A DNA stretch of 64,000 bases from Felis catus. Lineage: Eukaryota. How positions within the stretch are numbered: the stretch's first letter is position 1; each line of letters opens with the position of its first letter. A model generated the notes under the pieces. The model was not told the DNA's origin. It made no database searches and saw only the letters and a list, made by a program, of their open reading frames with translations. Location of the stretch: assembly GCF_018350175.1 (NCBI RefSeq), contig NC_058368.1, positions 89,530,001-89,594,000 on the forward strand, given 5' to 3'. The position numbers and the translations under genes were made by a program. Shown piece by piece: positions 4,661-58,600 of this stretch.

Positions 4661-5593
4661 CTATACCTGCTCTGTCCCCATCAAGCTCCTGACTGCTTTC
4701 TTCACATCCTTATTCCTCAGTGTGTAGACCAGAGGGTTGAGTGTGGGCGCAAGAATCATGTAAAGCACTGCCAGTGCTTTGCTCTGGTCCTGGGAGTAGT
4801 TGTCCTTGGGCTGCAGATACAAAAACATAATGGTCCCATAGAAGAGTGAGACTACCATTAGGTGGGAGGCACAGGTCCTAAAGGCCTTTTTCCTTCCCTC
4901 TGCTGAGCGCATTTTTACTACTGCCCTGGCGATGCACACGTAAGTGGTCAGGATGATGGAGACAGGCATGCCTAGGATGATTAGCCGGGCAATAAACATT
5001 TTAGATTCTGTCGGGCCAGTATCAACGCAGGAGAGTTTAACAATGATCAATAGTTCACAGAAGAAATGGTCCACACGCCGGTTTCCACATAGAGGCAGCA
5101 CCATGGCCATTGAGGACTGGAGAAAGGAGTTAGCAAAACCAGAGGACCAGGAAGCTGCTGCCAGGAGGTGGCACAGCCTGGGGTGCGTGATGGAGGTATA
5201 GTGTAGAGGCCAGCAAACTGCAACATAGCGATCAACTGCCATCACCGCAAGGAGCACACACTCTGTGGAGCCAAGTGCCAAGGCCACCCAGTACTGGACC
5301 ATGCAGCCAGCATAGCTGATCTTTTTGTTACCTCCCCACATGTTCACCAGCATCTGGGGCACAATGCTGGTGGTGAAGCAGAGGTCAAGCACAGAGAGGT
5401 TTCTGAGGAAGAAGTACATGGGTGTATGAAGTCCAGCATCCAGGATAGAAAGTAGGATTATGGCCACGTTGCCCACAAGAGTTATGGTGTAGAACATCAG
5501 GACAAAGAAAGAGAGGATCAGCTCTAACTTGGGCCACTCAGAGAAGCCCACTAAGATGAAATCCCCACCTGTGCTCTCATTAGCTGTTTCCAT
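4661..5593 (-). CDS. Olfactory receptor, class II, family 2-like (OR2W/2G/2C/2Y-related), intact 310 aa
   Basis: Single-exon ORF with OR motifs: N-terminal NES glycosylation site, GN in TM1, LHTPMYFFL, MAVDRYVAVCWPLHY, HFFCE, KAFRTCASHL, PTLNPLVYTLRNKDVK. The exact ortholog is not resolvable by eye. Confidence 0.96.
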   Translation of the reverse strand: METANESTGGDFILVGFSEWPKLELILSFFVLMFYTITLVGNVAIILLSILDAGLHTPMYFFLRNLSVLDLCFTTSIVPQMLVNMWGGNKKISYAGCMVQYWVALALGSTECVLLAVMAVDRYVAVCWPLHYTSITHPRLCHLLAAASWSSGFANSFLQSSMAMVLPLCGNRRVDHFFCELLIIVKLSCVDTGPTESKMFIARLIILGMPVSIILTTYVCIARAVVKMRSAEGRKKAFRTCASHLMVVSLFYGTIMFLYLQPKDNYSQDQSKALAVLYMILAPTLNPLVYTLRNKDVKKAVRSLMGTEQV

Positions 5594-6796
5594 CTCCTCT
5601 TCAGCCCTATCACTTCAGGAGATCCCACACCCTCTGTTGTGGGATTTAAGAATAATAAGTGGGTAATTAATACACATAATGGATTTAAAGGACAAGCATG
5701 GGTCCTTAGATGTGACCTAAATTCTACATTTTTGTTTTCTCTTGTCCTTTCCATCTATTTCCCCCTGCAACTGGATGAAAACTCCAGCAGATACATGACC
5801 TCCACAGTAATAAATGTATCACAACCAATTTCAGTTACAAACAGAATCTAAATCCACTAATTTGAAAACCCAGTCCCATGAATACCAACAACTGAAAGCC
5901 TCACTTAGCATTCAGTCTTGTCCTCCGCCAGCTATCACTCCTTCCAGGTAACCCCTTGTGCTTGAGGGATGGGCTGTGGGCAGCTTCTCTCTCTCCCCAC
6001 CCTTTCTCTGACAGCATGACAGTAGGGCCATAGGGTCTTCCTGTTTGGGCCATGCAAAGGGGGAGGAAAAGAGTTACAAAAAAGTTCTTACTCTTCCAAT
6101 CTGAGCCTGGGAGGTGTTTAAAGAGCTGACTCTTCTCTCATGGGAAAAGTGGTGGGTTCTTATAAGCCTCTTTACTGGGACAATGGGCCTGTGGGTCCCC
6201 AGCCTGGACTGGTGCATCTCCCATGAAGCTTACATCACCTTTTGCAGCTTCTGGAGATCCAGCATTCTCTCCCAGCATCGTGCTACTTTTTCCCTTTGTC
6301 CCTCTGGTGGCTCTAATGGATTAGACTCAGGACAACCCTGCACTAACTCTCCCTTCACCATCACCCTCCTCCAACACACAGGAAAGTCTCTTCCATCATT
6401 TGTCTCAGAAACATTGCAGCAACCAAGACTTTCTTGAATCTACCACTGTAGAAGCTATTGGCACTTTTCTCATCCCCCAGAATTTCCTGGTTTTTCTGCC
6501 CCTGATTCACTCTGTGCACTCCCAACTAAAATATGCAATTAGTGAAATCTCCAAGTAGCTCTGTTGAAGTCTCCCATCTGCACACCTATTAATGTAATGG
6601 GGCAGGTACTTTAAAACACCCTTTCCTGTTGGAAGGGGATGGTTTCAGACTCAAACTACTGCTTATTTCAAATGAATATTTGCAAATTCTCTCCCCTCCT
6701 CTTTACTCTCCTGACCTGTTTAATTTTTCATGTGGATGAAACTATTCTGGATGAATACTCCAAGAATCATACAACCATTTAAAAAATCATTTTCTT

Positions 6797-39997: not shown

Positions 39998-42900
39998 TTT
40001 TTTTTTTAAAACCTTAATGTGGAATTTTATTTCAGTTACTGTCTTTTATAATTTTATTTTTTTTAAATTTTTTATTAACGTTTATTTATTTATTTATTTT
40101 TTATATGAAATTTATTGACAAATTGGTTTCCATACAACACCCAGTGCTCATCCCAAAAGGTGCCCTCCTCAATACCCATCACCCACCCTCTCCTCCCTCC
40201 CACCCCCCATCAACCCTCAGTTTGTTCTCAGTTTTTAACAGTCCCTTATGCTTTGGCTCTCCCACTCTAACCTCTTTTTTTTTTTTTTCCTTCCCTTCCC
40301 CCATGGGTTCCTGTTAAGTTTCTCAGGATCCACATAAGAGTGAAACCATATGGTATCTGTCTTTCTCTGTATGGCTTATTTCACTTAGCATCACACTCTC
40401 CAGTTCCATCCACGTTGCTACAAAAGGCCATATTTCATTTTTTCTCATTGCCACGTAATATTCCATTGTGTATATAAACCACAATTTCTTTATCCATTCA
40501 TCAGTTGATGGACATTTAGGCTCTTTCCATAATTTGGCTATTGTTGAGAGTGCTGCTATAAACATTGGGGTACAAGTGCCCCTATGCATCAGTACTCCTG
40601 TATCCCTTGGATAAATTCCTAGCAGTGCTATTGCTGGGTCATAGGGTAGGTCTATTTTTAATTTTCTGAGGAACCTCCACACTGCTTTCCAGAGCGGCTG
40701 CACCAATTTGCATTCCCACCAACAGTGCAAGAGGGTTCCCATTTCTCCACATCCTCTCCAGCATCTATAGTCTCCTGATTTGTTCATTTTGGCCACTCTG
40801 ACTGGCGTGAGGTGATACCTGAGTGTGGTTTTGATTTGTATTTCCCTGATAAGGAGCGATGTTTAACATCTATCTTTTCATGTGCCTGTTGGCCATCCGG
40901 ATGTCTTCTTTAGAGAAGTGTCTATTCATGTTTTCTGCCCATTTCTTCACTGGGTTATTTGTTTTTCGGGTGTGGAGTTTGGTGAGCTCTTTATAGATTT
41001 TGGATACTAGCCCTTTGTCCGATATGTCATTTGCAAATATCTTTTCCCATTCCGTTGGTTGCCTTTTAGCTTTGTTGGTTGTTTCCTTTGCTGTGCAGAA
41101 GCTTTTTATCTTCATAAGGTCCCAGTAATTCACTTTTGCTTTTATTTCCCTTGCCTTTGGGGATGTGTCGAGTAAGAGATTGCTACGGCTGAGGTCAGAG
41201 AGGTCTTTTCCTGCTTTCTCCTCTAAGGTTTTGATGGTTTCCTGTCTCACATTCAGGTCCTTTATCCATTTTGAATTTATTTTTGTGAATGGTGTGAGAA
41301 AGTGGTCTAGTTTCAACCTTCTGCATGTTGCTGTCCAGTTCTCCCAGCACCATTTGTTAAAGAGGCTGTCTTTTTTCCATTGGATGTTCTTTCCTGCTTT
41401 GTCAAAGATGAGTTGGCCATACGTTTGTGGGTCTAGTTCTGGGGTTTCTATTCTATTCCATTGGTCTATGTGTCTGTTTTTGTGCCAATACCATGCTGTC
41501 TTGATGATGACAGCTTTGTAGTAAAGGCTAAAGTCTGGGATTGTGATGCCTCCTGCTTTGGTCTTCTTCTTCATAATTACTTTGGCTATTCGGGGCCTTT
41601 TGTGGTTCCATATGAATTTTAGGATGGCTTGTTCTAGTTTCGAGAAGAATGCTGGTGCAATTTTGATTGGGATTGCATTGAATGTGTAGATAGCTTTGGG
41701 TAGTATTGACATTTTGACAATATTTATTTTTCCAATCCATGAGCAGGGAATGTCTTTCCATTTCTTTATATCTTCTTCAATTTTCTCCATAAGCTTTCTA
41801 TAGGTTTCAACATACAGATCTTTTACATCTTTGGTTAGATTTATTCCTAGGTATTTTATGCTTCTTGGTGCAATTGTGAATGGGATCAGTTTCTTTATTT
41901 GTCTTTCTGTTGCTTCATTGTTAGTGTATAAGAATGCAACTGATTTCTGTACATTGATTTTGTATCCTGCAACTTTGCTGAATTCATGTATCAGTTCTAG
42001 CAGACTTTTGGTGGAGTCTATCGGATTTTCCATGTATAGTATCATGTCATCTGCAAAAAGCGAAAGCTTGACTTCATCTTTGCCAATTTTGATGCCTTTG
42101 ATTTCCTTTTGTTTTCTGATTGCTGATGCTAGAACTTCCAGCACTATGTTAAACAACAGCGGTGAGAGTGGGCATCCCTGTTGTGTTCCTGATCTCAGGG
42201 AAAAAGCTCTCAGTTTTTCCCCGTTGAGGATGATGTTAGCTGTGGGCTTTTCATAAATGGCTTTTATGATCTTTAAGTATGTTCCTTCTATCCCGACTTT
42301 CTCAAGGGTTTTTATTAAGAAAAGGTGCTGGATTTTGTCAAAGGCCTTTTCTGCATCGATTGACAGGATCATATGGTTCTTCTCTCTCTCTCTTTTTTTT
42401 TTTTTTGTTAATGTGATGTATCACATTGATTGATTTGCGAATGTTGAACCAGCCCTGCATCCCAGGAATGAATCCCACTTGGTCATGGTGAATAATTCTT
42501 TTTATATGCCGTTGAATTCGATTTGCTAGTATCTTATTGAGAATTTTTGCATCCATATTCATCAGGGATATTGGCCTGTAGTTCTCTTTTGTTACTGGGT
42601 CTCTGTCTGGTTTAGGAATCAAAGTAATATTGGCTTCATAGAATGAGTCTGGAAGTTTTCCTTCCCTTTCTATTTCTTGGAATAGCTTGAGAAGGATAGG
42701 TATTATCTCTGCTTTAAACATCTGGTAGAACTCCCCTGGGAAGCCATCTGGTCCTGGACTCTTATTTGTTGGGAGATATTTGATAACCGATTCAATTTCT
42801 TCGCTGGTTATGGGTCTGCTCAAGCTTTCTATTTCCTCCTGATTGAGTTTTGGAAGAGTGTGGGTGTTTAGGAATTTGTCCATTTCTTCCAGGTTGTCCA

Positions 42901-43465
42901 ATTTGTTGGCATATAATTTTTCATAGTATTCCCTGATAATTGTTTGTATCTCTGAGGGATTGGTTGTAATAATTCCATTTTCATTCATGATTTTATCTAT
43001 TTGGGTCATCTCCCTTTTCTTTTTGAGAAGACTGGCTAGAGGTTGGTCAATTTTGTTTTGTTTTGTTTTGTTTTGTTTTTCAAAAAACCAACTCTTGGTT
43101 TCATTGATCTGCTCTGCAGTTTTTTTAGATTCTATATTGTTTATTTCTGCTCTGATCTTTATTATTTCTCTTCTTCTGCTGGGTTTAGGCTGCCTTTGCT
43201 GTTCTGCTTCTCGTTCCTTTAGGTGTGCTGTTAGATTTTGTATTTGGGATTTTTCTTGTTTCTTGAGATAGGCCTGGATTGCAATGTATTTTCCTCTCAG
43301 GACTGCCTTCGCTGCATCCCAAAGCGTTTGGATTGTTGTATTTTCATTTTCGTTTGTTTCCATATATTTTTAAATTTCTTCTCTAATTGCCTGGTTGACC
43401 CACTCATTCATTACTAGGGTGTTCTTTAACCTCCATGCTTTTGGAGGTTTTCCAGACTTTTTCCT
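39998..43465 (-). mobile_element. Young 5'-truncated feline L1 (L1_Fc-like) with ORF2 broken by only two frameshifts
   Basis: ORFs 42338-43363 (341 aa), 40870-42372 (500 aa, LSLFADDM) and 40323-40796 ([18 protein letters not shown] zinc knuckle); G-rich 3'UTR, AATAAA at 40111-40116 and A-rich tail. Confidence 0.95.
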
Positions 43466-45036: not shown

Positions 45037-47160
45037 ATGAGAGGAGAAGAGAGAGAGGAAGACACAGATTCCAAAGCAGGCTCCCGGCTCTGAACTGTCA
45101 ACACAGAGCCAGATGCAGGGCCCAAACCCACAAACCATAGATCATGACCTGAGCCAAAGTTGGATGCTTAACCAACTGAGCCACCCAGGCATCCCTGATA
45201 CCCTATTTCCTTTGATTGGAACACTTAGTCTATTTACATTAAGAGAGACTTTTTTTCAAGCCCAACTAGTAGTGTTATGACTGTTGCTCTAAATTCTAGT
45301 TCATATATATTGCTTATATCTGTTTTGAGCAAGTCTCTGACTGTGATTTCTTCTTGACCTTTCTTTTGGGAAAAATTCCTCAATCTTGTCATTTGGGTGA
45401 AGTTTCTATCTTTTGCATGCTTTGAAAGCTTGTTATGTTTCCTGCATCTGAGATAATGCTATATTAAGAAAGGGTCATACACTGTCCAGGACCTGGGACT
45501 CCAGGACGTGTTCTGCTATATGTTGTGTGCACAGTGCTTTTGTATTTTGGCTGTTCTTTCCCACTGGTCAGTCCTCTGAAGAGCTCCTCCTTGCTTGCAG
45601 TGGGCAATGTTTGGACCTTTAACTAGGTGTGCTTTTATTTATTTATTTATTTATTTTGTTAAAATAAGCCTGGGGAAAAAAAGAGGGGAGAAAAAACCTG
45701 ATTCAAGAGAGAGAGAGAGAAGGAAAAAGAACAACAACAACAAAAAAGGAATCAAAAAACTTTAAGCCTGATTCCAAAGAAAAAGGGGGGGGGTGGGGAG
45801 AAAGAAAAAGGAAAAAAAAAGTCTGATCAAAAAGAAAAAAATAGAAAGAAAAAAAGAAATGAAAAAGCAGATAACTAACAAAAAACTATAAGCCTGATTC
45901 TAAAGGAAACAAAAGAAGAGGGGGTAAGCCTAGTCCTAATTCCACCAGAACTTCAGGTAATACTTTGAAGCACTCTATTTTCAGTACACTTGGTGCATGC
46001 AGGGTGTGGCCTGTACTGGTCTTCTGGATGAAAGGCCTTCTACACTGGCTCAGAGTCAGTCCTGCCCCCATAAATAAGTAGTTGCAGACATAGGGGAGCT
46101 GGATTCAATGTAAGTGGATCCTGCCTTCACTCATGGCTGCTATGTTGCTCTCTGAATTCCCATTGTGTTGGTGTTGAGGGGGAAATTGGAGACACCCCAC
46201 TCTTTTGTTCCAGGACAGGGGACTTCACAACTTCTCCCTGCCTCCCCCTCCCTGCCCCCCCCCCCCCCCCCGTTCATAAATCCCTCACAGAATAGCAATG
46301 GCAGGCAGCATCCACTGCACCACAGCTCACCTGAGTCTTTCTTTGGCGAGAGGCTGGGATTCAAAACACAAAATTGTAAAGGACCAAGCGCCATGCAGAC
46401 CTGCTCCCCTTGTCAAGAGTAGAGCCACTCTGCACCTTGTCTGATGTCCTTTATCCCAGAAAAACATTTCCACACCTTTGCCTTGCTCAGAATCCATGGT
46501 GTATCACTGCTAATAGCAGCAGCAACCAGGTTATCTGCCCTCTCTGGGCACCTCTGTCCCCTGCTTATGAAAGGCCTTTTGCTGGTGCCTAAAGGGTCTT
46601 TCGTCCTTGAAGATGCAATATACTCTCTTCCAAAAGTACTCCAGGAAGGGGAATGTTCTCCCCCAGAGTTCTCAGGAGATTCCTACACTGTACTATGCAC
46701 TCTGGGGCCCGCTCCCTCCTCTCCAGGAGCTCCTGCCACAGCTCCATATCAGAGAAAGTCATGCCCTTCCAAATCCTCAGAATTTGAGCTCTACGTGCTC
46801 TTTGCAAAAAACAAACAAACAAACAAAACAAAAAACAAAAAACCTGCAATGCTCAGTACCTCTCACTCCATATTCCATGGTCCCAAGAGGTTTTCCACTT
46901 ATGCAAAGTTAACACTGCACTCTCTGCACCTTTCTCTCTTTCTCTCCCTTTTGCCTCTCTACAGAAAGGGCTCCCTCTCCTCTCCCAATTCACTTGCACA
47001 CACCTCACACCTGCCACACTGTCTCCCTCTAACCATGGAGACCCTTCTGCCAGTGTGCAGATGGGTTTCCTGGGTGTTCCAAGTGATCTGACCTAAACAC
47101 AGCTGTGTTTGAGGGATGAGGAAAGCCCAGAGTTCCCCTACTTCACCATCTTAAATCCTT
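43466..47160 (-). mobile_element. Antisense LINE-1 with 5' end, most of ORF1 deleted (junction about 45247), 3'-truncated; contains three CanSINEs (44355-44540 -, 44577-44780 +, 44965-45195 -)
   Basis: 5' start aaggatttaagatggtgaagtagggg (minus strand); endonuclease fragments FSRIDHILGHK and WRTIYHASGHQKKA; SINE TSDs tagtttgtct and ctgata(t/c)cctatttc. Confidence 0.88.
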
Positions 47161-47303
47161 TGTTTCAGAATGTTTTATATTTTCAGTGTACAGATTGTTC
47201 ACCAGCTTGGCTTATTCCAAAGTATTTTATTCTTTTGGTACTATTGTAAAGGTTTTTTTAAATTTACTTTCTGGATTTTTTTAGATCCAGAGTCTATGAC
47301 AGA

Positions 47304-47321
47304 TGGTGACCCCGACGTGAT
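47304..47321 (+). other. Primer-binding site complementary to tRNA-Trp
   Basis: TGGTGACCCCGACGTGAT is the exact reverse complement of the recalled 3' 18 nt of vertebrate tRNA-Trp(CCA) and lies 2 nt after the LTR-terminal CA. Confidence 0.92.
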
Positions 47322-47521
47322 AGAGGAAAGGGGACTATGGGCTGAAATGGGCAAGGAGCCCACGTGGCCAGATGGTGCCACTGAAGGACTGCAGGACACC
47401 GGGGAACGGTTAAGGAGCTCCAAGAAAAAAATGCGCTGGGTACAGTCTCTACCTGACAAGGTAAGGGATAAAGTGAAACTATATTAGGATTCACTGCTGC
47501 AGAACTTTTGAGAGATCTATC

Positions 47522-48460
47522 ATGGGAAACTCCCTAGCCTCTGAACAAAAGTGCTATATTCAAATTCTTCAGTCCCTGGGAGACAGCAAGGACTAGTCTA
47601 AATTATAAGGCTCTCCTTAGATTATTGGCTGTCCAGCAAAATTGCCCTTGGTTCCCTTAAAGTGTGAGAATGAGCAGGAAAAACAGTAAAGGCCAGGCAT
47701 TCTAAAGGGGCTAACGTCCCCTCTAAAGTAATCCTCACCCGGTCCATTATCCGCACCACCCTTCCCTGCTTGAGCTCAGACTGTGTATATGAAGACCTAG
47801 AGTTATTTAAAAAGGAGGAAAAACCTCTTTCCCCCTATAGTCAGACTGAACTGACTGGTCTAGAGCCTCTGGCTCCTTTACAGCCAGAAGATACTCCTCC
47901 TCCCCCAGAAGGGTGGGACGATATGGAGCCTCTGAAAACCTCACCGACCAGCTCTGATAAAGTCCTCACCCCACTGCAAAAGTACATTTAAAAAGCCCAC
48001 AAGGCTGGTAAATTCCAGCTGTTTCCCATTGTCAGGCAAAATGGGCAATGTGGCCGTGAAGGGCTGGTCTTTCCAATTGTAAAAGAATTGCAAAAATCCG
48101 TTCACCTGTATGTCCATCACAGCCCTTTTACAATCGGTATTTTAGAAAATATTTGTGGCATTCATTCCATGTATGCCTGGGACTGGGGCTCTCTTATGAG
48201 CATCATTCGGACCCCAGCCCAGTATGCTGTCTGTGCTCAAGAGTTTAATGATGCTTGCATGACTCCTGCTTTGCAGAACTTTGTCACTGCTATTCAGGTG
48301 TCTTTTAAACAACTGTCTGACAAGGGGCAGTATCCCCAAACAAGGCAGTGAGCCCAACTTCCAATCACTGTCAAGTAAAACAATGCACTGAAATAGTGCA
48401 GTGGATTTTACACAGGCCATCCCTAATATAGGGGATTCTAACACTCTCTATCTTACTGTT
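47522..48460 (+). pseudogene. gag: ERV gag remnant (matrix to N-terminal capsid)
   Basis: MGNSLASEQKCYIQILQSL...VQQNCPWFP (beta-type matrix); FQLFPIV...KELQKSVHLYVHHSPFTIGILE...WDWGSL...PAQY (beta-type capsid). Stops and frameshifts; ends before the major homology region. Confidence 0.85.
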
Positions 48461-49429
48461 TCTATACACTCTTATTACTCTAACTATATGTGAGGGCTTC
48501 TCCCTCATTCATTCCCTGGATTAATAACCATGATAAGCCGACTGTCTCTGGCTAGTCTACCTCAGGATAGACATTTTAAGGAATATTCCCAAGCAGCTGC
48601 CGAAACTCCGTTTGTTTCAGGGAACTTCCCTGTCTTCTCTGGCCCAACATGGACTGCCTAATTCCACTAGTGGAAAACCAAACCAAACCAAACCAAAACA
48701 AAACAAAACAAGAATCAGTATCTGCTCATCTATCTGAGGTGATAGGCTTTAGGACTATGTGAACTCTTTTCTCTGCCCTCGGTGCCTCAGTCTGCCTTCT
48801 GGCCTCTCGGCAGCACTTCACCTTTTCTGCCTTCCCTTCCCCTTCCTCCTGTTTCTGCACTGCCTGGGGTGTGGCCTGCAAATCTGGCTCTTCAATGCCT
48901 CAGACAACATGCTGCTCCTTGCTCCCCACTCTGTCAAAAGGCAAAAAACACCCCCTTAAACTTTAAATTTCCTCACTGGTTCCATGGGGGAAAAAATTAA
49001 CAATGGTAAACTTTCAAGGGGGCGCAGATAAAATATTAAGACAGGCATGTCTTTTAAATTATAGAACTTTATTCTATTAAGGTTGACTAAAGGTCAAATA
49101 AGCTCACTTTATCTCTGTTCCAATTTGTTAGCAAAAGGATGACTTAAAGTAATGGTTAACTTTGCCTCATAGTTTTCATGGATAATTGTTAAGACAGATT
49201 TCAGGGTCTTTGGTAACCTAAAACTTTAACGTTTTGCTTAAATGGTAAATTGAATTAAGTTCTTTGGACATTTAGGCTTCTTTCAAATCAAATGGAATGC
49301 TGAAGCATTGCTTACTAAATAGGTTTATGCTTCTGACTTCTTATAATAAATAAATGAATAAATAAATAAACTGAGAATATTTAAATCCATGCTTTATGCT
49401 TAATGGATTCATAAGTCTACCACCTAAAA

Positions 49430-49870
49430 AATATTTTTTTTAATTTTTAAAAAAAAATTTTTAACATTTATTTATTTTTGAGAGACAGAGAGAACTAACA
49501 GGGGAGAGACAGAGAGAGACAGAGACACAAAATCTGAAGCAGGCTCCAGGCTCTAACCTGTCAGCACAGAGCCTGACATGGGGCTTGAACCCAAGAACCA
49601 TGAGATCATGACCTGAGCTGAAGTCAGTTGCTTAACTGACTGAGCCACACAGGTGCCCCCAATTTTTTTTAAGGTTTACTTATTTTTGAGAGAGAGAGAC
49701 AGAATGTGATCAGGAAGGGGCAGAGAGAGAGGGAGACACAGAATCCATAGCAGGCTCTAGGCTCCAAGTTGTCAGCACAGAGCCTGATGTGGTGCTTGAA
49801 CTCACGAACTGTGAGATCATGACGAGCTGAAGTCTGACCCTTAACTGACTGAGCCACCCAGGTGCCCCCC
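49430..49870 (-). mobile_element. Two adjacent CanSINEs (49430-49660, 49661-49870) inside the ERV
   Basis: Two reverse SINE units, each ending ...ggtgccccc. Confidence 0.9.
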
Positions 49871-50739
49871 AAAAATTTTTCTCATGTAACAAATAATTCA
49901 CAATTGGTCACTACTTAGGTTTTCACTGGAGACTAAAGTTTCTAAGAGTTAAAATTCTGCTAAGTGTAGTTAAAACTGGGGCAAAAATAACAAAAGCAAC
50001 TCTGTTATGTGGAAAAGTAGAAGATACAAAAGAAAGATATAAGAAATGGAAATATATTTTTGTTAAAGGTAAAATAAAGTAATTTTGTCTTAAATGAGAC
50101 TGGCTATTTTGAGAAAAATGGGTTGGGACAAAATCTAAGTGCAAAGAAAAGTTATAAAAGGTTCATGAGGGAAAATCTTTAAAAAGGAATTTTATGTGTG
50201 GTCAGGATGGACTAAGGTTAAAATAAATGGTTTTTAAAAGTACACAGGGTTAAAATAAAGATTCCTCCTCCTTTGATCCAAAGGCTGGGAAAATGATAAC
50301 AATACTCTTCATGCCAGCCTCCAAATCCTCCACATTTGCGTTGTTCCTGTTTGGCAAAGGAATGGATGCCATATAAGGGATGGATAATATATGAAGGGCT
50401 TTTACTAAGATACAAGGGAGCCATTTTACTAAACTTATCCCATTGTATGCCATAAATGGGTATCCATGTGACTGACACATACTTACATGGGTATTACTAA
50501 AAAAGACAGGAAAATAGACCTTAACTTTGGCTCTTTAGCCCCCTCCCTCAATGGCCAATGATCAATATGTAAGTTACTGCTGAGCAAAAATAAAATTAGT
50601 ACATCCTACAACAACCACACACACAAAAAATACATTATTGTTAATGGTGATAAATAAGCAAATAAATAATTTTAACAAAAAGGGTAAAACAACAGGACAA
50701 CACACCCTTTCAAGTTGTTTTACTTAAGCCTTGGTTAGA

Positions 50740-51095
50740 ATTAACCATTCCTTATAATCCACCAGGCCAAACAGTTGTAAAATGAGCACATGATGTGCTC
50801 AAAAACATGTTAAAAAACAAAAAGTGGGAGATACCCCTGGTTGTCTGCATTACAACCTCAGCTCCTTCTTGATCTTGCTAGGATTACTCTTAACTTTTTA
50901 AATCTCAATACTCAAGGACTAACTGCAGCTGAGTGACATTCTTCAAAATAAAATAAACCCTCTCACCCTATGGTGCCATGCAAAACCCCTGAAGGGGGGC
51001 CCTAATGGACTGGGCCCACAAACTTCTCATCTAGGGTCAAAGATATGATTCTGTTCTTTCAGATTCTGGACTTCTCTTGTTTGGTGAAGCCTTAC
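50740..51095 (+). pseudogene. pol: ERV integrase C-terminal remnant
   Basis: IPYNP..GQTVVK*AHDVLKNMLK..QK and LARITLNFLNLNTQGLTAAE*H resemble beta-type GIPYNPQGQAIVER and TLNFLN...TAAERH. Confidence 0.82.
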
Positions 51096-51096
51096 C

Positions 51097-53730
51097 ATGG
51101 CATCATGGAGACCTCCAGGATATCTTCCAATGAACCAACACTTCCAGAGAATGACTCTGAGTGAGCAGCCACTGGCCCCCTTTTTTCAAGATGGAAGAAG
51201 CCTCTTCATGGACTCCTCATCCTGAAGCCACTCCACAAATGCAAGTCCTTGCCCCTGATATAACATATAACATGGGGAATCCTTAAATGCATGTCTAACC
51301 AAGCTGACATCCTCTTACAACACAACGATATTGCATATACCCCTAATTCACATATGATGGCCATGATTTCTGTCATTAACAAAAATTCAATATGTGTAAG
51401 CCTGATTCTACTCCTTTCCTCTCATTTGTCCAGGCCAAGCTCAATATTCATATTGGGTTCATCTCCTTAACCCACCTATACTTGATAGCTTAACACTCCT
51501 AGCCTGAGATATTCCTATTAGCAATAATGACAAAGTTCATGGAAGGAGCCAATCTTAACCCGCCCTTCCAAACTGAACAAGAGCATTGACTTTATATGCC
51601 AAGACCTCAATGGTGGCTTACTTCAGCACCTCCTATGTGTGTTACTAAACTCAACAACTTTTCTGCTTGCCTCAAACTAAAAATCAGCTAGCTTTTGCAT
51701 GTACAGCCCATAACTTCTACAAGGCCAGAAAATTTTCCCTTTTTCTCAGCCATAAGCTTGATATACCTCAAAAAAACAAGCATATTTCATACTCCTAATG
51801 TTATAGCTTGCTCTAGTCTCAAATATTCAGACCACCCCTGGAATAATATTCCTTGGACAACCTGTTATGGAGAGACTGAGCATAATCTTCACTGGGGTAA
51901 TTGGACTATTATTGACAGGGGTCCTAGAGGACATCTTGAAACAAAATATTCAATAAGACCATATCCTTTGGCCAGCCTAGTAGGGAGGATAATTCTTGGA
52001 AAAACGGAGCCTTGTCTGGCCCTATAATTTCTGCACATAAGGGGAAATTAAAAGGACCTTGGCTTGAAAAAAAAAAAAAAAAAGCCTTGGCTTGTTAATC
52101 TTTAGAAGCTAGGTCTTCCCTTCTTTATTTGTACTATTAGCCACAGAGAAATTTATGTAAAACAACATGCTAACCTAACTTGGGCCTCCCTGTACAATAA
52201 CCAATTTACACGGACCACTATTTGTGTCCTTTCTCTCTACATTCTCTTTGCTACCTCCACCTTACAGAGCCAACAACTAGAAAATAATTTAATATCTCTA
52301 CCTCCCAAGGCTGGTTTATGTCCTGCATAAGTAATGATAACAAAAAATTAAAAATAGACCTACCCTATGACCCAGCAATAGCACTGCTAGGAATTTACCC
52401 AAGGGATACAGGAATGCTGATGCATAGGGGCACTTGTACCCCAATGTTTATAGCAGTACTCTCAACAATAGCCAAATTATGGAAAGAGCCTAAATGTCCA
52501 TCAACTGATGAATGGATAAAGAAATTGTGGTTTATATACACAATGGAATACTACGTGGCAATGAGAAAGAATGAAATATGGCCCTTTGTAGCAACGTGGA
52601 TGGAACTGGAGAGTGTTATGTTAAGTGAAATAAGTCATACAGAGAAAGACAGATACCATATGTTTTCACTCTTATGTGGATCCTGAGAAACTTAACAGAA
52701 GACCATGGGGGAGGGGAAGGGGGGAAAAAAAAAGAGGTTAGAGAGGGAGAGAGCCAAAGCATAAGAGACTATTAAAGACTGAGAACAAACTGAGGGTTGA
52801 TAGGGGGTGGGAGGGAGGGGAAGGGTGGGTGATGGGTATTGAGGAGGGCACCTTTTGGGATGAGCACTGGGTGTTGTATGGAAACCAATTTGACAATAAA
52901 TTTCATTTTAAAAAATTTTTAAAAAGTAATGATAACATCACCCAATTAAATATCTCCTCTTATTAGTACTTACTGCATCTCAACCTGGGTTCCTGTTAAT
53001 AGCACTGTACCGTATATACATCCATCAGGACTAGGTGCACTTTCCAAGCTTATTCGACACTGGCACTCTGCTGAAGGAAAAAAAAGATTTTTTGGCCTGT
53101 TAATCATGGGCATCCTCGCAGCAGTAGGTGTTATCACCTCTGCCACTGTAACTGCAGTCAATCTGCATCATACTATCCAAACGTTCCATGTCCTTAATAA
53201 ATTTATAGCCAACACTACCAAAGAATTTATAAGCCAAACTTCCATTGACAAACAAGCTTTGGCCCACCTCAAAGCTCTTGAGGCTGCAATGGAATTTATT
53301 GGGAAAAGACAAGAGTACTTGTTCCTCCACTCTAAACTGCCCTGTGACTCTACCAGCATATCTGCATGACTGGCATTCCTTCTAATCACTCCCAAGCTTT
53401 GGATGCTGTCCAGACACACCTTCGCAGTGTCCTGTCTTCCTATCTCTCTGACAATATAAAAGATTTAGATATGACTTTGCGCTAACAGCTACAATATGCA
53501 GAGGATCAGCTTAAAAATGAATGGGCTGATGCCTGGGAAATGTGGCGCGACCTAAATCCTTTCTCACTTATGGCTAGCACCCATCTCAAATTCTGGATAA
53601 CTTTGGGAAGCAGAATGCTTTTACTGTGTCTCTTTTTATGTCTTTGCAGAATCACCCTCCAAGCCAACTAAAAGCAAAAGAAGGACCAGGAGCTCATCAT
53701 GACAGTCCTCAAACACGAAACTAAAAAAAA
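51097..53730 (+). pseudogene. env: ERV env remnant (beta-type), interrupted by an L1 fragment
   Basis: Signal peptide with QRMTLSE and TWGILK; SU start YWVHLLNPP; WVPVN...GKKR/FFGLLIMGILAAVGVITSATV fusion peptide; SQTSIDKQ heptad; LPCD...C loop; DLNPF; hydrophobic anchor. Multiple stops and frameshifts. Confidence 0.9.
52343..52923 (+). mobile_element. 5'-truncated young L1_Fc 3' end inserted in env
   Basis: [19 protein letters not shown]...SLLCGS* plus 3'UTR; 14-bp TSD aagtaatgataaca (52329-52342, 52924-52937). Confidence 0.95.
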
Positions 53731-53789
53731 CAAAAACAAACAAACAAAAAAAAAAAACAAACAAAGAAAGAAAAACAAAAAGGGGGAAC

Positions 53790-54597
53790 TGTGGGGAATC
53801 AGCTTACAAACTCCCTGGGCTTACACCAATGGGTTAGCAAGGCATAAAGAATTGAAAGCCATAGGATGCTCACACCCAAGTTTGGGTAATCAAGACAAGG
53901 CAACCAAGAATAGGGAGGTGAAAGGCACCCCAGAACAGAAAGGGGGTGCAGAGCCCCCAGAATAGAGAGGGAGGGGCAAAGGCCCAAAAATAGGACGGTG
54001 CAAAGGCACCAATACAGAACATAGGTATATGAAATAAGCAAGATTAGATATTCAGGATGGAAGCACCCCCCAATTTAGTACTATAGCAGAAAGCTGCTTT
54101 CACAGGAAGAAAGGACCAAGAGAGGTAAACAGGTAAATTGGGCTACGGACCGCTGCACTGCAGGTGAAGTAGCCCAGAGCAGAAATGATTAATGAAAGAA
54201 AAGGTGCCTTGTTAACTCTGAGGCTATTTCCCCTACCTGTCTCATCCCCTAGACTAGCTAAGATGAACAGAGGTAGTGCCTTATGTCTCTGTAAACAACC
54301 TTCCACCAGACTGCCCGGCATTAGGTATTTGTTTTGTATTAACCCAAACCCCTAACTCTGAATATCTTCAAGACCCCCTTTCCCTCACATCCTCAAGTTA
54401 ATGTTCACAGATTCATTGTCTCTTTGTTCACAGCCATCACCATGTTTGTAAGCCTTCTGATCCTAATAAAAAAAGGGGCAAGGACTCTTATTCGGGGCTC
54501 TTGTCTTTTCCCAGACATTAGCCATCTCTCATGTTCTCATCCTGCATCCTGCTCTCTTGCTAGACAAGAGAGAACTTTAGACCCAGAGTCTACGACA
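53790..54597 (+). mobile_element. ERV 3' LTR (about 808 bp)
   Basis: Preceded by polypurine tract aaaaagggggaac; starts TGTGGGGA and ends TCTACGACA; AATAAA at 54465-54470; last 21 nt match the remnant at 47281-47301. Confidence 0.9.
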
Positions 54598-55699
54598 GAT
54601 TTTTCGTTTTTAGTATATAGAAACACAACTACTTTTTGAGTGTACTGTATCCTGAAACTTTGTTGAATTTGTTCATTAGTTGTAAGAGTTTATTAGTGGA
54701 TTCTTTAGGGCTTTCAACATACAAGATCGTGGCATCTGCAAAGATCATTTTACTTATTTCTTTCCAATTTCCTTTTATTTTTTCTTGTCTGATAGTTCTG
54801 GCTAGGATTTCCAGTACTATGTTGAACAGAAGTGGCAAGAGTGGGCACCATTGCCTGTTCTTAGAATAGTTCTCACTCCTCACCATTTATATGATGTCAG
54901 CTGTGGACTTTTCATACAAGGCCTTCATTATGTTGACAGTGTCCTATTCTTAGTTTGTTGAGTGTTTTTATCATGAAAGGGTGAATTTTGTCAAGTTTTT
55001 TTCTGCATCAACTGAGATAATGTAGTTTTTGGCTTCTCTAAATTAATGTGGTATATTTACATTGATTTATTTTTGTATGTAGAACCATGCTTATGTCCCA
55101 GGAATAAATTCCACTTTGTCATGGTGTAAAATCCTTTAAATGTGCTATTGGATTCAGTTTGGTAAGAATTTTGTTGACGTTTTTGCATTACAATTCATCC
55201 AGGACATCAATCCATATTTCCTTTTCTTATACTGTCTTTGTCTGGCTTTCATATCAGGGTACTGATGGCCTCATAAAATAATTTTAGGACTGTTCCCTAC
55301 TCTTCAATTTTTAGTAAGATTTTGCAAATCAGTTTAATTCTTCTTCAACTGTTGGGTAGAATCCTCCTAGAAGCCATCTGGTACTAGGCTTTTCTTTGTT
55401 GGGTTGATTACTGATTCAATCTCCTTACTTGTTATAAATTTGTTCAAATATTTTTATTTCTTAATGAATCAATATTTGTGGGTTGTTACTAGAAATTTAT
55501 CCATTCTTCAAGTTATCCAATTTGTTGGCATATGATTGTTTATAGTATTCAAATTATTTTTTATTTCTATGGCATCAGTTTTAATGTCCCCTTCCCACCT
55601 TCTATTTCTGATTTTTTTATTTGAGGCTTACCTCTTTTTTTCTTAATCTCGATAAAGGTTTGTCAGTTTTGTTTATATATTCAAAAAACTCTAAGTTAT

Positions 55700-58600
55700 G
55701 AGGAGGGAATAAGATGGCAGTGTGGTAGGGGGTCCTTGGGCTAATCTCGAACACAGCTAGATCAACATGAAATCATTTTAACACCTAGGAAATAAATCTG
55801 AGGATTAAGAGAACAATATGCAAAATTTGAGGGGATAGAACATGGCAGGTTCATGGTGTGGGGAAGGGATCTGGGGGTGAAAAAAGCCATGGTGGTGCAG
55901 AGGAGTGGGAACCCTTTTTGCAGAGAAGAGAGAGGTGGGGGAAGAGAGAGCAGCATGTCAGGTTTGTCAAGAAAAACACTCCCCACAACCATCGACAGGA
56001 ATCATGAGGAACTGAATATCACAAGTTTTGGCAAACAGTGGGGCTGAAATTCTGAGTTTTTGGAAGTCTGCTGGAGTAGATCCACAAGGACAGCGGTGCT
56101 CCTGGGGAGGAGGGGAAGCCTGGGAGTGGATTGGGGACAGTGTGATGTGGATATCCCCTGGGTCACACTCGGAGAGAAAGTTCCCCTTCCCTGAGTGCAT
56201 TTGGAAGAGGGTACATAGCCTCTCCAAGGACAAAAGACCCGGGTGGCACTTTTGAGTGGCTGTTCAACAACAGGGAACAAAGGCATGTACAGAGGGCTGA
56301 TAAAGTGGTCACACAGCTTTTCACTGTGCTCACCATAAATTCCAGGCACCTATGTGGCTGTGAGATGCATTTCCTGGGACAGAATAGCCTAGAATAGCAC
56401 TAAGCCTAGAATAGCACTAGGCTTGGTGCTGCAAGACTCTCCTCCAGAGGTGGGGAGCAGGTCCTCACCTTGCCAAGTCCTTTAATACTTGGAATTTTGA
56501 ATCCCCGTCACATGCTAGTGACAAAATACAAGAGAGCTGAGGCTCCAGGTGTGTCAATGTCCTGGGCACAGAAGGGTTAATTAAGGACAGGGATCTGACA
56601 GAAGTCTGGAACACAGGAGAAAAGACTGTCCACCTGTCTGTGAGGGGTACCTGAACAGTGGTGGGTGCCAGTTCCCCCACCCAGAATGGGACAGCATGGT
56701 GACACCACCTTCTCCTGCTCACCAGAATGGATGGACTTCAGTGAGTAACAGAGTGCCCACCCATCCAGGCTGGAGCTGCTTACACCAAGCTCCACCCCAC
56801 TGAACTCTACAGGATCATCTTTATAAGAGTAGGTCTGACTATGAGCCAGCACAGCAGGCCTATCCCCCAGCATACCAACAAAGAGCCGTCCTCATGCACC
56901 AAGTCTACTGATCATAGAGTGCTCCAAAGTGTAAGCTTCAGTTCTTCAGTTCTGGTGGAAATAGGACCAGGCTTATTATTTTTTTTAATCAGATTTACAG
57001 TTTCTTTGTTCATTTGTTTTTTTATTTCATTTTCTCGTTTTTTGCAACAGGCTTCTTTTTCTCCCCTTCCCTGTTTCTTCTTCTTTTTTGTGCTCTTTTT
57101 CTTTGGAATTAGGTGCATAGTTTTTGTTTGTATATTTGGGGTTTTTTTTGTTGTTGTTTCTTCACCTTTTCTTTCTTGGATAAGGCTTTTTTTTTTTTTA
57201 ATCAGGCTTATTTTAACAAATAAATCAAACCACACCTAAAGATCCAAACACTCCTCACTGTATGCAAGGAGGAACTCTGTAGAGTACTGACTGGGGCAAA
57301 GAGCAGCCAAATCACAGGACAGAGTGCACACAGCATACACTAGAAAACTCTGAGGTGCCAGGCCCTTGATGGTGTATGATTCCTTCTTCATATGGCATTA
57401 CACTCAGGGGCAGGAAACATAACAAGCTTTCATAACACGCAAAATACAGGCACCTAGACAAAATGACAAGACAGAGGAATTCTACACCAAGGAAAGATCA
57501 AGAAGAAACCACAGCCAGGGATTTGCTCAAAACAGATATAAGTAATATATCTCAACAAGAATTTAGAATAATAGTCATAAGAATACTAGCTGGGCTTGAA
57601 AGAAACATAGAAGACTCCAAGGAAATCCTTGTTGCAGAGATAAAAGACCTAAAAACTAGTCAAACTGAAATAAAAAATTCTATAACTGAATGTATAAAAT
57701 ATAAAAACTGGATGTAATCACAATAAGGATGGAAGAAGTATGAGGGTTGAATAGGTGATATTGAAAATAAAACTATAAAAAATAATGAAGCTGAAAAGGA
57801 GAGGAAAATAAAACTATTAGATCATGAATACAGACGTAGATAAATCAGCGATTCTATGAAGCACAGTAATATCTGTATCATAGTAGTCCCAAAAGAAGAG
57901 TGGGGAAAAGGAACAGAAGCTTTCTTTGAACAAATTATAACTGAGAACTTCCCTAATCTGAGGAAGTAAACAGGCATTCAGTCTGAGAGGCACGGAGAAC
58001 TCCCCTCAAAATCAACAAAAACAGGTCAACACCAAAACATATCATAGTGAAACTTGCAAAATACAAATTTAAAAAGAGAGTTCTGAAAGCACCTACGGAT
58101 GAAAGGCCCTTAACCTACAATGGTAGATACATAAGGTTAGCAGTAGACCTGTCCACAGACTTTGGCAGGCCAAAAGGGAGTGTCATGATATATTTAACAG
58201 GCTAAATGGGAAAAACATGCAGCCAAAAATTCTTTATCCAGCGAGGCTGTCATTCAGAATAGAAAGAGAGATAGAGTTTCCAAGACAAGCAAAAACCAAA
58301 TGAGTTCATGAACACTAAACCAGCTCCACAAGAAACAGTGAGAACAAAAGAGAGACCAAAAGCAACAAAGACTAGAAAAGAACAAAAACAATCTAAAAGA
58401 ATTCAACTTTACAGATAATACAATGGCACTAAATTCATATCTGTCAATAATTATTCTGAATGTAAATAGACTAACTGCTCCAATCAAAAGACATCGGGTA
58501 TCATAATGGATAAAAAAAAAAAAAAGATCCATTTATATCCTGCTTACAAGAGCTGATTTTAGACCCAAAGACACCCCCAGGTTGAAAGTGGGGGGATGGA

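Follow-up and report, generated by a model that had tools for sequence, protein, structure and literature searches.

The window analysed here, a 64,000-nucleotide stretch of the Felis catus genome (NC_058368.1, positions 89,530,001 to 89,594,000 of the forward strand), contains between positions 47280 and 54597 an endogenous retrovirus (ERV) with a primer binding site (PBS) for tRNA-Trp and genes of class II, or beta-like, type. This provirus is very probably a dead copy of an old Trp-primed class II family, and specifically a member of a chimeric subfamily that lacks pro-pol and is likely to have spread by means of proteins from pol-bearing helpers of the same family. A previous sequence-only reading had proposed a little-described class II lineage with an atypical primer. 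The class, the primer and the scant description stand, but the primer has precedents in the ERVs termed Hako and avibeta1e, and that reading overlooked that the window copy lacks pro-pol and combines class I with class II sequence as a chimera. Features of the locus, in window coordinates, are as follows (LTR, long terminal repeat; TSD, target site duplication; SINE, short interspersed element).

47150 to 47273, minus strand: left part of an old antisense L1, the target of the insertion; its left and right flanks are colinear in five other L1 copies
47274 to 47279, plus strand: left TSD, GATTTT, 6 bp, the same as 54598 to 54603
47280 to 47301, plus strand: 5' LTR remnant, the last 22 nt (U5 end) with the remainder missing; 20/22 match to the 3' LTR end
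47304 to 47321, plus strand: PBS for tRNA-Trp(CCA), exact complement of the host tRNA-Trp 3' end
47322 to 47521, plus strand: class II leader, common to siblings
47522 to 48398, plus strand: 5' part of gag, broken, covering matrix and the N-terminal domain of capsid (Gag_p24, 8.5e-14); 76% DNA identity to the pol-bearing sibling L083, stopping at 48398
48399 to 48482 and 50618 to 50746, plus strand: short linkers flanking the filler
48483 to 50617, plus strand: non-coding filler that goes back to the 5' leader of class I ERVs of a tRNA-Pro family, by identity to loci with a Pro PBS
49434 to 49870, minus strand: two later SINE insertions (repeat families D1-D8), presumably of a carnivore-type family, not at this place in siblings
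50747 to 51125, plus strand: broken 3' part of integrase, 77% to L083, whose frame matches IN_DBD_C (1.1e-11) and rve (1.8e-9)
51120 to 53740, plus strand: broken beta-type env with signal region, surface and transmembrane (TM) parts (GP41, 1e-3 and 3.6e-4); 84-86% to L083
52343 to 52923, plus strand: later L1 3' fragment within env, 93-94% to other L1 copies, with a 14-bp TSD (52329-52342 / 52924-52937)
53777 to 53786, plus strand: polypurine tract, from the sequence
53790 to 54597, plus strand: 3' LTR, 808 bp, TG...CA, AATAAA at 54465; 79-88% identity to family LTR matches
54598 to 54603, plus strand: right TSD, GATTTT, the same as the left, after which the old L1 resumes

Gag, which starts with MGNS at 47522, and likewise integrase and env, are interrupted by stops and, when each segment is compared with a sibling, by 4-12 frameshifting indels; nucleocapsid, dUTPase, protease, reverse transcriptase (RT) and RNase H are all missing from the window copy. 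The beta-type motifs earlier picked out in gag, integrase (IPYNP, TLNFLN) and env (FFGLLI, SIDKQ) lie where they had been placed, in broken frames, and structural matches in PDB are beta-type; the 808-bp 3' LTR with its TG...CA ends was also correctly delimited. The PBS had been described as lying directly after the LTR end, and it does start two bases past ...GACA, although that end belongs to a 22-nt remnant. A single 388-nt contig spans this 5' junction with no differences in three of three contig runs, which rules out an assembly artefact; the raw-read run was thin (13 reads). Codon periodicity, a weak test of selection on env and gag of the chimeric subfamily, was absent from eight of eight segments (p 0.18-1.0).

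The PBS (TGGTGACCCCGACGTGAT, 47304-47321) bears out the 18/18 match first reported, being exactly complementary to the 3' end, with CCA added, of six host tRNA-Trp(CCA) genes called by ARAGORN; the second-nearest tRNA in our partial host set is five positions off. When the genome was searched with the last 15 PBS bases, the 10 matches comprised those six genes and four sites behind LTR ends. The exact 18-mer occurs four times genome-wide, each time behind an LTR end (control, 0; chance expectation in the window, 5e-7). Tabulating PBS types across copies, a check proposed with the initial observation, yielded 26 rows (25 distinct loci, with three duplicates): 24 of the 29 leader-gag loci, which include the PBS region, plus L002 and L004. 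Trp was nearest in 24 rows, tied in one and beyond recognition through decay in one; Lys was nearest in none, contrary to what would have been expected of a Lys-primed sibling group. CpG-type changes account for 27 of the 62 PBS mismatches among these rows. Retention of both PBS CpGs, to which attention had been drawn, has no special meaning, as it recurs in 5 of 23 insertions (the window copy together with the 26 rows, from which the decayed row, a twin row and two rows from segmental duplications were removed). Identical copies within segmental duplications include L046, L047 and L048 (C47, 83.05-83.28 Mb), L028/L029, and L064 and C43.

This 23-insertion set splits at the last PBS base into 11 with T, 11 with C and one with A, whereas T>C change affects only 2 of 69 remaining PBS T positions (Fisher p 1.5e-6). 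Host isodecoders differ at the matching base: six tRNA-Trp genes give T and two give C, the latter being additional tRNA-Trp genes that make up two of the three genome matches to the C-form PBS. The two states are intermixed within subfamilies, with six changes across 19 labelled rows of the leader-gag tree. The correspondence between the T/C split and the two host isodecoders indicates real priming, and since the plus-strand retroviral PBS is copied from the primer tRNA, we infer that tRNA-Trp was the working primer of the family and that both isodecoders served.

Evidence on RT, dUTPase, protease and nucleocapsid derives from pol-bearing siblings, all of them decayed. L083 encodes a capsid C-terminal domain, two zinc knuckles, a dUTPase (2.8e-12) N-terminal of the protease, the protease, RT and integrase. 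Beta-type chains top the PDB ranking for RT, capsid, integrase, TM and dUTPase. The window capsid N-terminal domain best matches p27 chains 2v4x and 2kgf, which we take to be those of JSRV and MPMV, and then HERV-K, with no alpharetroviral capsid among the 11 PDB matches at E<=1; its env TM best matches that of HERV-K (1.5e-5). Sibling RT best matches 7sr6, presumably HERV-K (7.6e-60 versus 1e-21 for HIV), and sibling integrase matches 5cz1, which we assume to be MMTV (2e-12), over avian sarcoma virus (3.8e-6). Solo LTRs of the family are flanked by TSDs of 6 bp, exact in 17 of 27 and with at most one mismatch in 23 of 27; none of the 27 has a 4-bp TSD. With RT/Pol of siblings clustering with alpha- and betaretroviruses, a 6-bp TSD and a beta-type TM, the family is a class II (beta-like) ERV, and the trees that the initial reading had called for keep its genes inside class II.

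In the window copy the interval from the capsid C-terminus to mid-integrase is replaced by approximately 2.1 kb of class I leader sequence. This replacement is shared: compared with L083, most siblings break off at one capsid position and restart at one integrase position. Among 20 fetched loci, one of which is a different family, the gag-filler junction is present in 13, the filler-integrase junction in 13 and both in 12, while two continue from capsid C-terminal domain to RT instead. The filler belongs to an abundant family (549 first-look candidates, 40 scored) in which it sits between a tRNA-Pro PBS and gag; a Pro PBS is in view at 5 of 20 donor-type loci, and matches to Gag_p30 (6.7e-8) and MLVIN_C (2.5e-11) mark these loci as class I. 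Since the filler occupies its native leader position in class I loci and is not in pol-bearing class II copies, transfer from class I to class II is the direction indicated. Identity to donor-type loci is 79-86% in the 3' half of the filler but just 67-69% in the 5' half, so that the donor of the latter is not among the loci compared. Exact 6-bp TSDs at the window copy, L089 and L091 suggest that a class II integrase acted in trans on chimeric copies. Capture of a host 3' untranslated region (3'-UTR), as in Hako, was considered and rejected, the filler being repetitive and resident in class I leaders.

Further observations concern the filler itself. A 33-nt direct repeat at window 49054-49086 marks a 450-nt piece that is found in L075, L077, L080 and the Ser loci and is missing from the window copy; 49432-50626 is missing from some other copies. 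With different pieces missing from different copies, the filler appears to have shrunk in steps. In a Ser(AGA)-primed class II lineage (L133, L147, L149 and L150, compared with L148) the same filler, 1.1 kb long and 81-86% identical to that of L075, stands in place of about 1.4 kb of gag, and pro-pol is kept. Separately, the pol-bearing member L084 / L132 (C39:6.065-6.083 Mb) is apparently split in gag by a gamma-like provirus in opposite orientation.

Primers at 41 class II RT loci of the genome are Lys3-type at 16, Trp at seven, Ser at five and weakly Asp-like at two, with none found at 11. The Trp loci belong either to the window family or to a second lineage (L088, L125, L144, L158, L163, L164), whose LTR is unrelated (LTR end ...CCCACAAT) and which has ~54-57% RT identity to the window family and likewise lacks a G-patch region. 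Two loci of the Ser clade, L146 and L147, carry the weak Asp-like PBS, a possible primer switch. From the protease end motif to RT, 7 of 9 measurable Trp-clade loci span 82-96 nt, leaving no room for a G-patch, versus 231-253 nt in 18 of 24 others; no G-patch motif lies between protease and RT in the Trp-clade loci. A long Pol tree (827 columns) joins both Trp lineages to the HML5-like rows P0488 and P0497 at 87/99, and quicker Pol trees recover this grouping at 95-96 (SH-aLRT), apart from birds. Approximately unbiased (AU) tests reject a union of the family with HML2-like rows (5e-6) and likewise with the Lys3 beta cluster (3e-4). Protein searches returned no named close relative and no database protein above 68% RT identity. 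Rather than an anomalous switch within a virus of MMTV/HML2 type, the Trp primer seems to be a trait of a deep branch without a G-patch, and placement of the family in that branch is likely but not settled: low-coverage rows were dropped, named exogenous viruses lie outside the trees, and AU tests leave both bird and broad mammalian groupings standing.

A search with the LTR gave 1479 first-look candidates, 40 of which were scored, with 79-88% identity over long matches; the 29 sibling LTR loci that matched best had no PBS next to them. The leader-gag tree has the shape of a star, its terminal branches measuring close to 0.10. Using the 2.2e-9 substitutions per year quoted in PMC12323578 as a guide, we loosely estimate the age of the family at 20-45 million years (My). 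Four LTR pairs are nearly identical (L076, 0%; L089, 1.3%; L075, 2.1%; L078, 4.2%) in copies otherwise ~15-20% from their siblings. Recent activity is ruled out as the cause, since the terminal branches of these copies measure 0.08-0.12 and most of their PBSs are decayed; the likely cause is LTR homogenisation, which makes such pairs misleading for dating. The 20 holders identified among sequencing runs represent only two organisms, and the host range therefore offers no dating.

Several observations weigh against parts of this interpretation. The branch uniting the Trp lineages with HML5-like rows is not starred in the careful long tree (87/99), the HML5-like row there covers 25% of columns, and the P0488 cluster was recognised as HML5-like by eye against a published consensus (PMC4724089 file 3). 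The trees contain no named MMTV, JSRV, MPMV, RSV or Hako sequences. Seven LTR pairs give Kimura two-parameter distances from 0 to 0.16 (three at 0.09-0.16, four at 0-0.04) and hence conflicting ages. L051 carries the filler yet groups with pol-bearing copies, so that the history of the chimera was not one clean event, and the exact donor of the filler was not found in the donor family fetched. Host tRNAs for PBS typing came from an incomplete set, an Rfam tRNA search amounting to 59 loci.

The shorter RT tree (229 columns) sets both Trp lineages among bird and tortoise RTs at 98/89, and AU tests reject neither the bird grouping (p 0.12) nor a broad mammalian one (p 0.35), which bears on the proposal that a bird beta-like retrovirus of avibeta1 type crossed into a carnivore ancestor and brought the Trp primer with it. 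The marker set of avibeta1e is identical (W primer, two zinc fingers, dUTPase, no G-patch; PMC3482500 Table S1), and the Fig. S3 legend of that paper mentions that an avibeta1d-like provirus may have passed from bird to felid. We nevertheless regard a bird source as unlikely: long Pol trees leave all bird rows outside a 99-100 supported branch that holds the family, RT identity to bird proteins is just ~50-55%, and HML5 is likewise without a G-patch (PMC4724089 file 3). Still less probable, in our judgement, is that an ordinary Lys-primed betaretrovirus of MMTV/HML2 type switched once to tRNA-Trp, with no deeper phylogenetic meaning. The PBS is known to be unstable (PMC4724089, PMC1224870) and the primers of the 41 class II loci are varied, but a single switch fits poorly with two Trp lineages that have unrelated LTRs, diverge as far as noted above in RT and both lack the G-patch region, and AU tests reject grouping with the Lys and Ser lineages of the genome (p 0.024, 0.049) as well as with HML2-like rows. 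A different matter, bearing on novelty and not on mechanism, is whether the family is already curated (in Dfam or Repbase, or as FcERV-beta, RV-domestic cat/RV-cougar or the PyEM13001 'alphabeta' clade), leaving just the PBS and the chimera as new; we give this somewhat better than an even chance. The LTR is abundant, with the 1479 candidates mentioned, three felid class II clades are published, one of them basal to alpha and beta (PMC4373062), and four FcERV-beta families are cited in PMC4133949; against this, the term PBS appears nowhere in the main text of PMC4373062, and neither the literature search nor the protein searches brought out a carnivore Trp-primed class II ERV or a closer RT.

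Comparison with known systems, based on parts of the publications cited, shows where the family resembles and departs from them. ERV-Hako is a simian group II ERV primed by tRNA-Trp, described from genomes that include dog and no felid (Frith 2025, PMC11905727). Hako and HakoP share with the window family a mammalian group II affiliation, the Trp primer, a 5-6 bp TSD, an LTR start TGTGGGG and defective forms with foreign sequence; Hako also has patchy similarity to HERVK22 (HML5) in Fig. S3 of that paper. As compared by description and not by sequence, Hako has simian hosts, a 401-bp LTR with ~47 copies and inserts from host 3'-UTRs, whereas the window family has a carnivore host, an 808-bp LTR with a different 3' end and a class I leader insert. 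The same paper assigns an Arg primer to HERV-W, and a host Arg(TCG) gene does yield the HERV-W-type PBS, so that the earlier listing of HERV-W as Trp-primed must be corrected. HML5 is primed by tRNA-Ile and has primate hosts. Measured by path length, the row closest to the family from outside is an HML5-like database RT, at 1.5 substitutions per site, and HML5/HERVK22 resembles the family in having dUTPase in Pro, a protease that ends directly before RT and no G-patch (PMC4724089 file 3). Among avian elements, avibeta1e has K/W primers, dUTPase and two zinc fingers, and no G-patch is recorded in birds (Bolisetty 2012, PMC3482500 Table S1); these and the alphabeta ERVs differ in their bird hosts and fall outside the branch of the family in long Pol trees. 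Alpharetroviruses share the Trp primer (W for the alpha clade in that table) but differ from family siblings, which have dUTPase and whose integrase and capsid score better against beta chains. From MMTV, JSRV, MPMV and HML2 types the family differs in having no G-patch at the protease C-terminus and tRNA-Lys in 0 of 26 sibling rows.

Nearer to the host, Mata 2015 (PMC4373062) describes, on the basis of pro-pol, three clades of felid class II elements, of which one lies between alpha and beta; the passages covered give no PBS data. The felid clades FcERV-beta1-4, RV-domestic cat/RV-cougar and PyEM13001 'alphabeta' resemble the window family as felid class II elements, one being basal to alpha and beta without support, and differ in being published as pro-pol fragments, without PBS or structure in the passages covered; they, too, are compared by description (PMC4373062, PMC4133949). 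Dog beta elements are mostly Lys-primed (PMC3093408). The literature covered, which also took in PMC12584738, PMC13568524, PMC13756887, PMC9825726, PMC5667498 and PMC4724089 file 6, revealed neither a Trp-primed class II ERV in carnivores nor such a chimera, though Dfam and Repbase, outside the comparison, or PBS tables (e.g. PMC3093408 Table S1) may list one. Structurally the chimera recalls recKoRV-type elements. These are recent, have a gammaretrovirus backbone and combine retrovirus ends with a middle replaced by an unrelated retroelement, spreading with a helper; the window family departs from them in its class II backbone, class I leader insert and env at full length. Recombinants of recKoRV type are named as defective forms in PMC11905727.

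Other features of the window were noted. An open frame of 317 aa on the minus strand (4661-5614) is presumably an olfactory receptor gene, judging from its motifs. A large young L1 with long ORF2 frames (40100-43400, minus strand) is 94% like the L1 fragment inside env, and two related inverted repeats of ~82% identity (45250-46000 and 56890-57605) flank the provirus region.

From this evidence we propose a history in which tRNA-Trp served as working primer and both host isodecoders came to be copied into the PBS. The chimera would have been born through a switch of template between class II and class I RNAs packaged together, and would have kept its LTRs, PBS, leader and polypurine tract in cis while class II enzymes carried out reverse transcription and integration in trans. 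The insertion of the window copy into an old L1 would date back some 20-45 My; afterwards a deletion marked by T-run microhomology may have removed most of the copy's 5' LTR, and two SINEs as well as an L1 fragment were probably gained. The family would belong to a deep G-patch-less branch together with HML5-like elements and the second Trp-primed lineage of this genome. It is conceivable, if rather doubtful, that an old mammalian G-patch-less branch (the two carnivore lineages, Hako and HML5-like elements) kept the primer of avian alpha and avibeta viruses, Lys and the G-patch being later traits of other betas, and that the class I leader is a portable module taken up separately by two unrelated class II lineages of this genome, one Trp- and one Ser-primed, to give successful helper-dependent elements.

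The original observation is confirmed as real and moderately new: the Trp primer is family-wide, with precedent in primates and birds, and what is newer lies in the isodecoder record, the association of Trp with a branch lacking the G-patch and the chimera with its class I leader. Nothing suggests a present-day function, all copies seen being decayed. A second mammalian order joins the short list of tRNA-Trp-primed class II ERVs, and the tie between Trp and a structural marker, the missing G-patch, makes the order in which primer and marker were gained among betaretroviruses testable. At the last PBS base, the T/C split offers a fossil record, rare of its kind, of tRNA isodecoders serving as primers. 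With class I sequence placed in a class II element, the chimera is a cross-class recombinant; in our sample its copies are more numerous than those of the pol-bearing parent, and its class I segment recurs in another class II lineage.

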